Below the pieces are notes generated by a model. The model ran no database searches, had not been told where the DNA came from, and saw only the letters and a list, made by a program, of their open reading frames with translations. Positions 1,792 to 8,261 of a DNA stretch of 64,000 bases are shown here, piece after piece. This DNA comes from Escherichia coli. Its GTDB lineage: Bacteria; Pseudomonadota; Gammaproteobacteria; Enterobacterales; Enterobacteriaceae. The position numbers and the translations under genes were made by a program. Position 1 is the stretch's first letter; every line of letters starts with the position of its first letter. The DNA is taken from assembly GCF_024700885.2 (NCBI RefSeq), contig NZ_CP117016.1, one strand, 5' to 3'.

Positions 1792-4635
1792 TCAATCTTT
1801 ATCGTAAAAACTGCCACGCCCGGCACGGGCGCGCCGTTCCATTTCTGCCCTGACCATTTCACCGACCAGTTTCGCCAGTTCGCGGGGATTCTGCGTAACA
1901 ACGTTATGCAGATGAACATGAATTTCACCACCAAATCCGGAGGCAACAGGCTCCCGGTTACGGAAAGTTACAGGAACTGATGCCACTGGAGATCGTATGG
2001 CCTCCGCCACCGGGCGGGAGCTGGCCGCAACAACAGGGACCAGCGCCGGAGGCAGCGGAGCCGGGACCACGGGTGTGATATTAATTGCGGGGGCAGGCTT
2101 ACTGACCTGCGCAATCTTCCGCTCCTGCCACTCCCCACGAACAGCAAGTGCGCGGGGCAGGTTCTTAAAGACAATATCGCCGGGGCCAATGCGTTTTTTC
2201 GTCTCATCAACCAGCTTACCTGTGTTATCAGCAATTTTGCTGAGTCTGCGTAGCGTCCCGGTATTGCTGTCTGTGAGCGGTTTGTTGTCTTTGGGTTTAT
2301 CACCTCCGGTGCCATTGCCATTTTCCACAGGCTTCGGCGGATTGATTTTCGCCAGGTCACCCTGAAGCAAGGCAACCTTGTCCTGAAGAATGGCCGCACG
2401 CTGTGCGTCTTCGATTTTCTTGCGCGCCCTTTCCGCTTCATCCGGAAGGACGCCAAGTTTTTCAAGTATCCACGCCAGCGTATCCAGTAGCATTTTTGCA
2501 GGTGTCAGAACAAGCTGTAACGCACCGCCAAGAACGTTACCGAATATCTCGCCAGCACTGGTACATTTATCCAGCGTTTCCTTGCTGGACTCCATCGGTG
2601 ACAGCAGCGATTTAAACCAGTTAAACACCTGGCTGATCCCGCTTCCGATTGCGTCAAAAACAGGACCAAACCGTTCAAAGGTTTCGCGCAACGGGGTCAG
2701 CCTTTCCATAATCCCGCTGAACACCCCGGCAAAAAATGCCCTGATGGGATCCCAGTATTTCCAGATAAGAACGGCAGCTCCGGCAAGCGCAGCCACGATA
2801 AGACCAACCGGACTGAACAGCGCCCCGATAGCGCCTCCCAGTAAAGAAACGGAACCCGTCACCATTCCCCACAGCGCAGGCAACACCCTGACGACATTCA
2901 TTGACCGGGTAAGAATGTCGAAACCAAGACGCAGGGTGGCCAGCTTCCCGTAAAGCACCCCAATAACCAGCGACAACGAGCCAATCGTTGCAGTCATTGC
3001 CAGCAACGCACCGCCTGCTATCAGTAGTTGGCGCGTCAGTACCGGATGGGCCTGCGCCAGCGAGGTGATTTTTTCAAGCACCCGCGTGAGCCACTGCGTG
3101 ACAGAACGCAGCGGACCGTCAACCAGATCACTGATGCGAATACGAAGACCTTCCCATGCGCTGTCGAGATTTTTCAGGTCCCCATCAAGATTATCGGCCA
3201 TTACTTTTGCGACGCGATCGGCCTCTCCCCTTGCCCCCTGCAATTCTCTGGTCAGTTTTTGCAGCTCTCCTGAACCAGCCGCCGCAACAAGCGTCTGCAA
3301 ACCAACGAACGCCTCTTCTCCGGCGATGTCCTTGAAGAAGGAAACCTGGTCCACCTGTCCGTATTTTTGTGTCGCCTTATAGAGATCAAGCAGCACATCC
3401 TCCATCGGGCGCATTTTGCCTCTGGCGTCAGCAACTGACACCCCCAGCTCTTTCAGTGCATCAGCCGCAGCTTTTGGCGGTGATGCAAGGCGGGACAGAC
3501 TTGCGCGCATGGCCGTACCAGCATCGCTTCCGCGAAGACCATTATTGGCAAGCATCCCGGCCATGGCCGCCGCTTCTTCAAGACTGATACCAAGTTTTGC
3601 GGCAACCGGACCGGTATACTTCATGGTTTCGCCCAGCGCGCGTAAATCAGTATTGGTCCGGGTGAATGTTGCTGTCAGTGTATCGCCAACCCGGTCCATT
3701 TGATCGGCTGTCAGGTTGAACTGTGTGAGGATATTGGAGCCTATATCAGCCGTCTCGCCGAGTTCGACGCCACCTGCCAGCGCCATATTAAGAACACCGG
3801 GCAATGCGGCCTGAATGGCCTGCGGAGTAAAACCAGCCATTGCCAGAAAGCTCTGCCCACTGGCGGCATCACTCGCAGTAAACTGTGTTTCAGAGCCAAG
3901 TTTTAACGCCTGCTCACGCAGCGCCTTAAACTGCGGGCTGTTTTTGTCGATTCGCGTCAGTGCCTGAACGCGGGACATCTCTTTGCCGAACCCGATCGCA
4001 GGCTGCAAAAAACGCCCGGCAGCATAGCCGCCCGCCGCTGCCGCACCAATTGCCAGCGCACCACCTGTTTTCAGTTTTCCCGCTGTTTCCTGCGCGCGCG
4101 AATACCGCTCACGCGCCCGCGTTACACGCGCAAGCGCCTGCCGTTCGCGTTCAAGCTGGTTGTTGTACTGTTCGGTGCGTCTGATGGCCTGCTGGATGGT
4201 GTTATCGCTGCCTGTCAGGGAAATGCCGTGGCGTTTCAGCTCTCCGCCAAGTTCCCGCATTTTCTGAATTTCCCGTGTGCGCGATTCATTCAGGCGTTCA
4301 AGCCGGGTGCTTAACTGCTGCATCAGCTTTTGTTGTTTTTCGCTGAGCACTGTACCCGTGCGTTGTAACTGATTAAGGGCGTTAAGCTGGCGTCGTGCTT
4401 TCACGATGCCCGCATCCGCTTTACTGACAGCGTCACGGGCGCGCTCAAATGAACGCGCCTGACGCTCGAGATTTTTGATCGCCCCCTGCGTTCGCTGGAT
4501 GGAGTCACCAAACTGCCCCATCAGGCGGCGGGCGTTTTCGGCAGGCCGGGTCAGCCTGTCAACGGCGCTGAAAGCGACCCGGATATCAAGAGTCTTCATT
4601 GTCTGCATTCCCGCTGCGAAGTGCCGCCCGCTCAC
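1792..4635 (-). CDS. Phage tail tape measure protein (gpT)
   Basis: 947-aa ORF between E/E' and U, Ala/Gly-rich with coiled-coil-like N-terminal region; start codon uncertain. Confidence 0.85.
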   Translation of the reverse strand: MSGRHFAAGMQTMKTLDIRVAFSAVDRLTRPAENARRLMGQFGDSIQRTQGAIKNLERQARSFERARDAVSKADAGIVKARRQLNALNQLQRTGTVLSEKQQKLMQQLSTRLERLNESRTREIQKMRELGGELKRHGISLTGSDNTIQQAIRRTEQYNNQLERERQALARVTRARERYSRAQETAGKLKTGGALAIGAAAAGGYAAGRFLQPAIGFGKEMSRVQALTRIDKNSPQFKALREQALKLGSETQFTASDAASGQSFLAMAGFTPQAIQAALPGVLNMALAGGVELGETADIGSNILTQFNLTADQMDRVGDTLTATFTRTNTDLRALGETMKYTGPVAAKLGISLEEAAAMAGMLANNGLRGSDAGTAMRASLSRLASPPKAAADALKELGVSVADARGKMRPMEDVLLDLYKATQKYGQVDQVSFFKDIAGEEAFVGLQTLVAAAGSGELQKLTRELQGARGEADRVAKVMADNLDGDLKNLDSAWEGLRIRISDLVDGPLRSVTQWLTRVLEKITSLAQAHPVLTRQLLIAGGALLAMTATIGSLSLVIGVLYGKLATLRLGFDILTRSMNVVRVLPALWGMVTGSVSLLGGAIGALFSPVGLIVAALAGAAVLIWKYWDPIRAFFAGVFSGIMERLTPLRETFERFGPVFDAIGSGISQVFNWFKSLLSPMESSKETLDKCTSAGEIFGNVLGGALQLVLTPAKMLLDTLAWILEKLGVLPDEAERARKKIEDAQRAAILQDKVALLQGDLAKINPPKPVENGNGTGGDKPKDNKPLTDSNTGTLRRLSKIADNTGKLVDETKKRIGPGDIVFKNLPRALAVRGEWQERKIAQVSKPAPAINITPVVPAPLPPALVPVVAASSRPVAEAIRSPVASVPVTFRNREPVASGFGGEIHVHLHNVVTQNPRELAKLVGEMVRAEMERRARAGRGSFYDKD

Positions 4636-5179: not shown

Positions 5180-5692
5180 TCAGCCAAGCCCGAGCGCGGA
5201 ACGGATACGGTCAGGCAAAATGTCCTTGCCGTCCTTCCGGTAGATGTGGTTCAACAGGTCGATTTCCCACAGCGGGCGATCGTTAACGCTCAGCTTGTAG
5301 TAGGTGTTTTTGACAGCGTAAGTGTGTGATGTGGCTTCGCCCTGTTTGGCTTCCCCCATATCAATTTCCGTCACACGTCCGCGCATCTCGATTTCATACA
5401 GATCGCTTTCTGCATCGGTGTAGTATTCACCCGCAAAACGCAGCAGCGTGCCGTCAATCGTGCCGCCATATTTAAGGAACAGCGCACGAACAGCTCCCCC
5501 CATAACAAAACTCGCATCAAGCGCGGAGTCGTCCAGACCGAGATCAATACTTACCGCCCCCATCATGCCACCACCACGATAGCTGTCGGTTTTGCGCGTC
5601 AGTTTGGGCGGCGTGACGGATGTCACTTTACCCACTTCGTTTTCACCATCCACAAACAACGTAAAAAAGCGAAGATGTTTTGGTACAGCCAT
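5180..5692 (-). CDS. Phage tail tube protein (gpFII)
   Basis: 170-aa ORF; its start overlaps the FI stop (ATGA), the usual FI-FII coupling. Confidence 0.85.
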   Translation of the reverse strand: MAVPKHLRFFTLFVDGENEVGKVTSVTPPKLTRKTDSYRGGGMMGAVSIDLGLDDSALDASFVMGGAVRALFLKYGGTIDGTLLRFAGEYYTDAESDLYEIEMRGRVTEIDMGEAKQGEATSHTYAVKNTYYKLSVNDRPLWEIDLLNHIYRKDGKDILPDRIRSALGLG

Positions 5693-6876: not shown

Positions 6877-7033
6877 AGCTTCAGCCCCTTGTATCCGTTA
6901 AATGATTCGGCAACAATCATCACCCACCACGCGCGTAATCTCACCCCTGCGCCGTTCTCCCACCACGGCGACAACAAAAAGCAGTAACCCCCTCCGCACG
7001 CACATGCGACCATGCCGCACAGGGAGGGAACAG

Positions 7034-8131
7034 ATGACCGACACCACCATGCAATTGCTCAGTCAGGGCACAGACCCCGTGAAAATGCCGGATTTTGATA
7101 TTCTCGCGGAGGGTAAAACGCTGTCAGGCGTGACAGAGCGCCTGATGAGCCTGTCACTGACCGACAACCGGGGATTTGAGGCGGACCAGCTCACCATCAC
7201 GCTGGATGATGCAGATGGTCAGTTGCAGCTACCGCCACGGGGCGCGCGCCTGACGGTTCTCATTGGCTGGAAAGGAGAACCGCTGACAGAAAAAGGCACT
7301 TACATTGTTGATGAAATCGCTCACGAAGGACCGCCGGACAGGCTGACTGTTTCAGCCAGAAGCGCAGATTTTCGGGATGAATTTAACGTTAAACGTGAGG
7401 TGTCCTGGCATGATGTGACCGTTGAGCGTGTGGTATCCGCCATCGCTCATCGGTACGGTCTGAAACCGCAAATCAGCGAAATGCTGATGGATATCGAAAT
7501 CGACCACGCCGACCAGACCGAAGAAAGCGACATGTCCTTTCTTACGCGCATGGCGGAAATGCTGGGCGCAATCACCACGGTAAAAAGCGGTAATCTGTTA
7601 TTCATTATGCCAGGCGGTGGCGTGAACGCACAGGGCCAGCCGTTGCCATCGTTCGCCATCACGCGCAGCAGTGGCGATCGCCATCAGTTCCGCATTGCTG
7701 ACCGCGAAGCGTATACGGGGGTACGCGCTTACTGGCTTGATCTTAATTACGGGAAAAAGAAAAAAGTCAGCGTGAAACGCCGTAAACCGAAAATGGAGAA
7801 AAGCAGTAGCCGTGAAGGCGACTATATGGAAGGTGCGGAAGGCAACGTGTTTGTGTTACGCAAGACTTATCAGAACGAACAGGCAGCAAGACGCGCTGCG
7901 GCGGCAAAGTGGCAGCAGCTACAACGCGGAGCCGCATCATTCTCCATCACACTGGCACGTGGACGCGCAGAACTCTACCCCGAAATGCATGGCACGGTAA
8001 CAGGATTTAAAAGCGAGATTGATAATCAGGACTGGATTATTGCAAAAGCCGAGCACACCATTGATAACAGCGGTTATACCACGCAGCTTGAACTTGAAAC
8101 AAAAATCCCTGAATGGATTGCGCAGACCTAA
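7034..8131 (+). CDS. Phage late control / tail protein gpD
   Basis: LSLTDNRGFEADQL, SARSADFR, SWHDVT, YMEGAEGNVF match P2 gpD; ATG at 7034 is preceded by AGGGAGGGAA; the ORF track extends upstream to 6902. Confidence 0.85.
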   Translation: MTDTTMQLLSQGTDPVKMPDFDILAEGKTLSGVTERLMSLSLTDNRGFEADQLTITLDDADGQLQLPPRGARLTVLIGWKGEPLTEKGTYIVDEIAHEGPPDRLTVSARSADFRDEFNVKREVSWHDVTVERVVSAIAHRYGLKPQISEMLMDIEIDHADQTEESDMSFLTRMAEMLGAITTVKSGNLLFIMPGGGVNAQGQPLPSFAITRSSGDRHQFRIADREAYTGVRAYWLDLNYGKKKKVSVKRRKPKMEKSSSREGDYMEGAEGNVFVLRKTYQNEQAARRAAAAKWQQLQRGAASFSITLARGRAELYPEMHGTVTGFKSEIDNQDWIIAKAEHTIDNSGYTTQLELETKIPEWIAQT

Positions 8132-8146
8132 ATGGTGGGAAGATAC

Positions 8147-8185
8147 GGCACAGAGCCAACATAATATACCTGTTTGCTCTGTGCC
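8147..8185. repeat. Perfect 10-bp inverted repeat (GGCACAGAGC / GCTCTGTGCC) with 19-nt loop between convergent D and orphan gene
   Basis: Read directly; no adjacent T-run on either side. Confidence 0.5.
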
Positions 8186-8261
8186 CGAAATAGGCATCAT
8201 AAACCTAACGATGAATTGATATGCAAGATTATAAAAAATCCGCTGACATTATTTCTCATCG

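Follow-up and report, generated by a model that had tools for sequence, protein, structure and literature searches.

Convergent genes and a hairpin in a P88-like prophage

The window, the whole 64-kb stretch of Escherichia coli DNA that was analysed, carries a prophage in which a tail gene and an uncharacterised gene on the opposite strand converge on a short spacer, with the late-gene activator lying beyond them. The genes and the parts of the spacer hairpin, whose arms match exactly the consensus of a repeat family described below, are as follows:

7040-8131, plus strand: D, a tail gene of the P2 gpD family, listed among the ORFs as 6902-8131; homology to 80 D proteins of viral contigs starts at 7040
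8147-8156, no strand: hairpin (helix A) 5' arm, GGCACAGAGC
8158-8174, no strand: inner extension AACA/TGTT (8158-8161 with 8171-8174) and its 9-nt loop, from folding and the repeat finder
8176-8185, no strand: 3' arm of the hairpin (helix A), GCTCTGTGCC
8262-9422, minus strand: cargo gene of 384-386 aa, about 31% G+C, from an uncharacterised family
9624-9884, plus strand: ogr, the late-gene activator

A preliminary description of this DNA had set the phage beside P2, but it is P88-like (genus Xuanwuvirus) and not P2 itself. DNA homology to the cargo-free P88 ends at 8122 and restarts at 9584, and these limits define an insert at 8123-9583 (1.46 kb) that holds the last three codons of D, the hairpin, and the single cargo gene. 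The hairpin does not occur in cargo-free relatives; P88 has only 14 nt between the two blocks of homology. The G+C content is 28-36% inside the insert and 50-60% in the flanks, and D is joined directly to ogr in cargo-free relatives. D ends in ...IAQT* in the window and in ...IAETE* in the relatives, with the affected stretch at 8120-8131. The comparison with P2 that the preliminary description had proposed revealed a D-ogr spacer of 81 nt containing the ogr promoter alone. Because the P2 annotation places the terminator 'for ogr transcript and F operon' after ogr, late transcription would normally cross D into ogr.

The cargo protein (384 aa in the RefSeq annotation of E. coli 2D) had no match in Pfam, PADLOC or NCBIfam, and its AF2 model (pLDDT 90) returned no informative fold match in the PDB. 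More than 120 uncharacterised homologues occur in the Enterobacterales, Vibrio, Photobacterium, Moritella, and even Paraclostridium, with invariant residues that include S53, M55, W57, and G145-A-H-P148. Homologues are found in unrelated contexts, such as the nin region of a lambdoid phage (locus L005) and chromosomal islands, and the gene may be considered a candidate new defence gene. The D-cargo-ogr module is present at ≥99% identity in 19 of 5426 complete E. coli genomes, and in each of these carriers the 139-nt spacer occurs once, always with the same cargo. One variant position was seen among the carriers, outside the hairpin.

The perfect 10-bp inverted repeat with a spacing of 19 nt was reported accurately in the preliminary description, in both coordinates and sequence. 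Beyond a single C/T mismatch, the 4 pairs of the inner extension lengthen the stem to 14 pairs, and the repeat finder returns arms of 15 nt (8147-8161 and 8171-8185) that are 93% complementary around a 9-nt loop. The repeat had been placed exactly between the convergent stops; it does lie between the stop codons of D (8129-8131, plus strand) and the cargo gene (8262-8264, minus strand), but at 15 nt past the first and 76 nt from the second it is not central in the spacer. Folding, which had been suggested as a check, yields -22.1 kcal/mol for RNA of the plus strand (z -5.3) and -23.5 kcal/mol for the minus strand (z -4.6), with 0 of 200 shuffles as good in either case, and -13.5 kcal/mol for DNA (z -5.5). 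The stem is strong, but the terminator scan calls no site here and, as had been noted, there is no T-run on either side: past the stem the plus strand reads on as CGAAATAG and the minus strand as GTATCTTC, neither of which has the T-run of a Rho-independent terminator, and the loop of 9 nt (19 nt between the perfect arms) compares with a range of 3-8 nt in the scan. A search of Rfam 15 with 8123-8261 returned only chance-level matches to eukaryotic snoRNAs (E > 1).

Perfect inverted repeats of this size are a non-random class in the window. Ten have arms of at least 10 bp and loops of 3-30 nt, about sixfold more than the 1.6 ± 1.3 expected from first-order Markov simulations of the window, and the chance of finding one in a given 130-nt spacer is approximately 0.003. 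The D-cargo spacer contains a second, smaller perfect inverted repeat of 9 bp (TAACGATGA/TCATCGTTA, 8206-8214 and 8256-8264), the right arm of which overlaps the cargo stop codon. Cargo homologues with 75% identity in other contexts likewise have the motif of its left arm, AATTCATCGTTA, conserved downstream of them.

A repeat family shared with the P2 Z region

A blastn search of phages with the D-cargo spacer returned no match, and the relationships of the hairpin emerged only once many D-ogr regions were aligned. Viral contigs were collected through 97-99% identical D proteins (n = 80), and the interval from D to ogr could be measured in 74 of these, half of which (37) are cargo-free and half (37) carry cargo. 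Among the filled sites the cargo length takes some 24 values (984-3803 nt) and the ORFs run on one strand or the other, but all of the sites share a common left framework past D and a common right framework ahead of ogr. They are bracketed by a short direct repeat, cAACTTAGA, that is present as a single copy in the cargo-free phages, such that the filled form reads AcTTAGA, TGTA...TACA, ACTTAGA. Positions 8123-8190 of the window align with the left framework of the other cassettes, and a profile of this framework matches the window at 8144-8216 (nhmmer, E 1.8e-6) as the single copy in the 64 kb; the same profile matches a full copy in a Serratia island (E 6e-17). The profile of the right framework matches at 9527-9597 (E 2.8e-18).

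The hairpin is not private to the orphan cargo gene. A hairpin-bearing unit of ~100 nt adjoins at least 20 different cargo modules at D-ogr; homologous hairpins stand beside unrelated cargo at locus L030 (GGCACAGAAGCAAACC...TTTTGCTCTGTGCC) and locus L063 (GGCACAGAAGCAAACCTGATAGTTTGCTCTGTGCC), and the unit also occurs at the P2 variable sites G-FI, S-V, and A/Q, as well as in many Enterobacterales. At L030 and L063, the nearest relatives of the window copy at D-ogr, the same 3' arm, GTTTGCTCTGTGCC, pairs in a different register to form ~14 pairs (-21 and -25 kcal/mol).

The pattern GGCACAG-N18-36-GCTCTGTGCC has a match in at least 120 viral contigs. Most of these matches represent a 40-nt form with a conserved loop (e.g., GGCACAGAGTAAAGCCTAATCTGACAGTCCGCTCTGTGCC), which lies 53-54 nt past D in P88-like contigs and 7-10 kb upstream of D in contigs with a P2-type D. 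At locus L091 the hairpin unit directly follows the tail-fibre assembly gene G. Next come a cargo gene in reverse orientation, a second copy of the unit, inverted, then a terminator and FI; the position is the Z/fun site of P2. A blastn search with the L091 unit matches P2 (AF063097, 15277-15353), Wphi, L-413C, and others, together with the 'proviral Z-region' records AJ512676-AJ512685 (P2-EC30/31/45/46/53/67), which presumably belong to the study of Nilsson, Karlsson & Haggard-Ljungquist (2004, Mol Biol Evol 21:1). In AJ512676 and AJ512680 the matching stretch (3-115, 113 nt) is annotated as a 'left inverted repeat', and a 91-nt partner repeat past the ORFs of the Z-region records is labelled 'right inverted repeat' in AJ512680. 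The element was therefore already known, as the matching repeat has been annotated in GenBank since the early 2000s. On alignment, the window hairpin falls directly under GGCACAGAGT...GCTCTGTGCC of the annotated left repeats (P2-EC30 and P2-EC46), and P2 itself has a putative V-operon terminator ~290 nt beyond its left-repeat unit (15277-15353), to which the window copy likewise aligns. The profile match, the alignment, and the GenBank annotation bear out the earlier suggestion that the palindrome could be a footprint of the cargo insertion boundary. We place high confidence in the assignment of the window repeats to the GenBank-annotated family of P2 Z-region left and right inverted repeats. 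The two share a sequence family and a partner repeat beyond AT-rich foreign ORFs, but they differ in that the window copy is truncated and decayed, belongs to a P88-like phage (Xuanwuvirus), and occupies D-ogr rather than G-FI. Judged by its alignment, the feature in the window is a decayed repeat of the Z-region type at a site other than the annotated one.

Contexts of the unit, as assigned with PHROGs and Pfam, include S-V (the orf30 site), G-FI, D-ogr, gpU and the tail fibre, positions next to portal and terminase genes, positions after gpA, and positions beside integrases and a gene resembling a T4SS-coupling gene. The unit was also matched at 74-79% identity in Stx-converting and other phages that are not P2-like (cdtI, Ayreon), and a stringent genome scan recovered it in 24 species, nearly all Enterobacterales, plus Shewanella. 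One context (L165) was considered as the P4 psu-int hotspot, but Pfam assigns the neighbouring protein to DUF551 and not to Psu, and no claim is made for P4. At locus L004, labelled Serratia quinivorans, a direct repeat of ~65 nt (GAAAAAAAGATTTATAGAAAAACTGGTCACACTGTTCACTTTTGAATTTTCTCTATATTAATCATTG, 5452-5515 and 5619-5685) is located immediately outside a full left-repeat unit.

Profile searches across 208 loci yielded 168 matches in 132 loci, among them 31 convergent pairs of units spaced 1.1-6 kb apart that bracket cargo. The unit begins TGTAYTAGCTCAGAC, holds two direct copies of CTGACA ~40 nt apart, and includes helix A (GGCACAGAGC/GCTCTGTGCC, with a conserved loop) followed by helix B (GTCCGC-N12-GCGGAC); these overlap by 2-3 nt, and therefore the two cannot both form fully. 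In right-end copies the terminus is retained, as are AATCTGACAG and helix B; the 5' arm of helix A is degenerate or missing. In 43 diverse units, many of which had been retrieved with a pattern requiring the helix A stem, 88.5% of helix A cells pair compared to at most 53% in slid controls. Covariation in helix A was not found in these units, where a single double change was equalled by shuffles, and RNAalifold did not recover the helix as a consensus; what is kept may therefore be the sequence of the stem (a protein site, for instance) rather than its structure. For helix B, 74% of cells pair and 14 cells carry double changes, a number matched by 17 of 500 shuffles and thus weak support; its variants include GTCCGC/GCGGAC, GTCTGC/GCAGAC, and GTCTAC/GTAGAT. 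A unique placement of the hairpin units 3' of genes was considered and set aside, as units with and without the hairpin were alike (36:1 versus 27:4) and polarity did not discriminate between them. By-eye comparisons of the unit with dif/XerCD, the Hin/Gin crossover, ERIC, the Mu left end, and the Ogr TGT-N12-ACA box were unconvincing.

Transposon-like ends, cargo, and defence hotspots

In the window, the bracketing elements and the signal ahead of ogr are the following:

8123-8190, plus strand: remnant of the left inverted repeat, decayed, from the nhmmer profile match and alignments
9541-9584, minus strand: right inverted repeat in a short form, ending ...CCAGTACA, from the profile match and alignments
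9565-9593, plus strand: ogr promoter-like signal TTGGAG-17 nt-TAAAAT, with the -35 in the right repeat and the -10 overlapping the target site
9585-9591, no strand: surviving 7-bp target copy ACTTAAA (ACTTAGA in relatives, with one ACTTAGA in cargo-free phages)

Across loci the repeat pairs share the termini TGTATTAG...CTAATACA, with direct repeats of 7 bp on the outside. In Kosakonia arachidis (L221), TTTAAAT stands on both sides of TGTATTAG...CTAATACA, and in Mixta (L209) the same is true of TTTCATG; in both cases the ends are perfect and the duplication is complete (7/7). The flanking 7-mers are alike at ≥5 of 7 positions in 8 of 15 distinct contexts, compared to 12% of displaced controls, and several contexts (e.g., S-V) have no recognisable target duplication. 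Empty sites are available for two of the insertion points. The D-ogr site of P88 holds a single ACTTAGA. A comparison of L091 with loci L239 and L240 revealed that the empty G-FI site of E. coli NCTC11151 and EC556 reads CAATAAAT followed directly by ACAGGCGGGCG, and the filled site reads CAATAAGT, the element (TGTA...TACA), AATCAGG and ACAGGCGGGCG, equal to the element plus 7 nt. The L091 cassette sits between the stop codon of G and the V-operon terminator GGCGGGCGAATTGCCCGCC (units at 3748-3818 and about 5470-5545). That the target 7-mers differ between sites would be easier to reconcile with staggered-cut transposition than with a fixed core at which recombination takes place.

Clustering of the proteins carried by 67 cassettes yielded 65 clusters. 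Where family matches exist, known defence proteins stand out, and the matches include ThsA/ThsB (Thoeris), SduA (Shedu), KwaA/KwaB (Kiwa), viperin, AbiGi, a KAP NTPase, and PDC candidates, alongside one ars operon. Among the family matches listed for the 65 clusters, neither a transposase nor a recombinase was present. The sole transposase seen in any cassette is an IS110-family gene (L221, 7786-9027, minus strand) within a 5.2-kb cassette. To our knowledge, the IS110 family makes neither long inverted ends nor 7-bp duplications. The gene is probably a nested insertion.

At the level of the family, terminal inverted repeats and 7-bp duplications of fixed length were thus found at independent sites, as expected of a non-autonomous transposon, and the repeat pairs appear to behave like the ends of a transposon-like cassette that lacks a transposase. 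We infer that the cassettes move by transposition. Mobile insertion cassettes and MITE-like elements have terminal inverted repeats, a target-site duplication, and passenger genes but no transposase. The Z-type family shares with these the inverted ends TGTATTAG/CTAATACA, the 7-bp repeats, the empty-site alleles, and transposase-less cargo, but its ends are unusually long (~100 nt) and asymmetric, and no autonomous copy was found in the cargo searched. Integron attC sites are imperfect palindromes that bound exchangeable gene cassettes. The Z-type cassettes differ from these in having two inverted ends and a 7-bp duplication per cassette and cargo in either orientation with its own promoters; no adjacent IntI-type integrase and no attC consensus was recognised.

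With high confidence, the hairpin can be described as the internal palindrome of a degenerate left inverted repeat of ~95-113 nt that, together with the right repeat, brackets a cassette. Confidence is equally high that this cassette was inserted at the 7-bp target ACTTAGA between D and ogr of the P88-like prophage. The right repeat is a short form from which the hairpin region is absent, and its reverse complement can be aligned to the left unit in both the outer and the inner part. The content is foreign by its distinct G+C, the 37 cargo-free relatives, and the cargo homologues in unrelated contexts. Relative to filled relatives, the left repeat of the window is missing ~30 nt, including the original stop of D, the left target copy, and the first repeat bases; through this deletion D runs into the beginning of the left repeat, resulting in the AQT* end. 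Of the intact termini TGTAYTAG...CTRRTACA, the right is present (CCAGTACA, 9577-9584) and the left has either disappeared or merged with the D terminus. The 7-bp duplication is limited to the right copy (ACTTAAA); both copies are found in relatives filled at this site. The stem agrees with the consensus at 20/20 bases but the loop at 11/19, the upstream part at 10/24, and the downstream part at 12/30, with the loop motif AATCTGACAG degraded and helix B (GTCCGC/GCGGAC) gone. The window copy is an immobilised relic.

Insertion at the target would also have split the ogr promoter at its -10, and the cassette end seems to have been co-opted as the -35. The annotated ogr -10 of P2 is CTAAAAT, and the form TTGGAA-17-TAGAAT is conserved in other D-ogr cassettes. 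The promoter scan did not call the signal because the -35 matches at only 3 of 6 positions.

On a wider scale, we would tentatively propose, while holding it to be more doubtful than established, that the Z-type repeats are the ends of a widespread family of transposase-less cassettes that founded the variable loci of P2-like phages considered here, and that a host or phage enzyme recognises the hairpin-bearing core. Such a family would cover A/Q, S-V, G-FI, U-fibre, and D-ogr, plus the integrase-adjacent, lambdoid/Stx, and island loci across the Enterobacterales. Recent work on defence hotspots of P2 and P4 defines the hotspots by their flanking core genes. Two recent hotspot papers make no mention of inverted repeats, and one of the two ascribes the arrival of defence genes at predictable locations to a mechanism that is presumably different and unknown. 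The D-adjacent hotspot may be the 'third hotspot' of a preprint, flanked there by a tail protein on one side and, on the other, by a regulator of transcription that the preprint calls CI. If the proposal is true, both the 'defence hotspots' and the swapping of cargo would have a physical mechanism, through recombination between ends or re-transposition, and the repeats, 7-bp duplications, and empty sites make the arrival of defence genes at hotspots directly testable. The profile of the ends would serve as a sequence handle with which cargo cassettes, and new defence genes with them, could be found whatever element carries them. For the window, an otherwise unexplained palindrome becomes a dated landmark, the left edge of an inserted cargo cassette, a reading that explains the altered C-terminus of D and points to an ogr promoter rebuilt from the right end of the cassette.

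Possible present role of the hairpin

It is probable that the feature as a whole is best explained as the decayed palindrome of a cassette end that may now act as an RNA stem-loop barrier. Taken separately, the present role, in which the stem-loop would act as a barrier between the convergent D and cargo transcripts, falls somewhat short of an even chance. An insulating stem-loop had been offered in the preliminary description as a possibility, and its one support is the preservation of all 20 stem bases in a unit that has otherwise decayed. The hairpin would be transcribed on both strands, once in the 3' UTR of the late message from the F operon (in P2 this message crosses D into ogr) and once in that of the convergent cargo transcript. 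At -22 to -23.5 kcal/mol and lacking a U-tract, the stem would not act as an intrinsic terminator, but it could block 3'->5' exonucleases or help to stop or pause transcription. Such a barrier would set the 3' ends of both convergent transcripts and would limit antisense read-through into the cargo gene and D. Given a cargo gene that is antisense to read-through from D to ogr, and a hairpin common to the two 3' UTRs, a transcript-separating stem-loop would be the most economical role. REP-type 3' stem-loops stabilise upstream mRNA, and U-less hairpins exist between convergent genes. The window hairpin is likewise stable, just past a stop codon, in a 3' UTR, and without a U-tract; unlike REP/BIME elements it is not dispersed, and in E. 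coli it is confined to a single place in each genome, always together with this cargo.

A terminator, possibly bidirectional, that evolved in place between D and the cargo gene and is unrelated to the end of a mobile element would also be expected to have a strong, G+C-rich stem where the two stops converge. The other perfect inverted repeats checked in the host part of the window look terminator-like, and in another cassette of this site (500465-2) a hairpin adjoins D and runs into TTTG. The window hairpin shares with Rho-independent terminators a G+C-rich stem at the end of a transcription unit, but not the T-run, and its loop is 9-19 nt. This origin is quite improbable, as the U-tract is absent on both strands, the scan is silent, and the homologous unit adjoins unrelated cargo in either orientation, even upstream of forward cargo; in P2, the unit sits inside the V-operon 3' UTR some 290 nt ahead of the annotated terminator. 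For the family as a whole, the main rival is a site for a protein or recombinase. The palindrome, in the form of a DNA hairpin or cruciform or of two inverted half-sites, could be a still-working signal recognised by the enzyme that moves the cassette, which would accord with its position inside a terminal inverted repeat whose target is duplicated over 7 bp and with a stem that is conserved as sequence without covariation, next to an equally conserved loop (AAACCTAATCTGACAG), a pattern suited to a protein site. Such a site is unlikely to be operative in the truncated window copy, where neither the TGTATTAG terminus nor the left target copy survives and where the loop motif and helix B are lost as well, and for the hairpin as a working signal the chances are low. 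The missing or degenerate 5' arm at right ends means that helix A is not a symmetric end feature, and no recombinase is encoded in the cassettes among the family matches listed.

The decay of the unit in the window is clear, and the carriers are too alike to reveal constraint, both of which would be compatible with a chance palindrome or a neutral leftover without function. Homology to the repeat family excludes pure chance, and with ~45% identity outside of the stem, the probability of a 20/20 stem is ~1e-7, a value subject to some ascertainment bias as the repeat was picked for being perfect. We therefore regard the absence of function as very improbable. An intact stem in a decayed unit suggests that the stem is kept for its own sake in the lineage of the window, although this is conservation and not covariation, in a finding chosen for its perfection. 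The decayed cassette end with a barrier role remains the preferred reading.

Two further features occur downstream of ogr. A sok-like antisense RNA (Rfam RF01794) was detected at 9929-10088 with 49 bits against a gathering score of 59, at a position where P88 and its relatives annotate a hok/gef or MokW-like killer gene. Between the end of the prophage and ihfA, three terminator-like hairpins occupy 10224-10400, one of which (10302-10329) is bidirectional, and this interval is probably the attR/host junction region.
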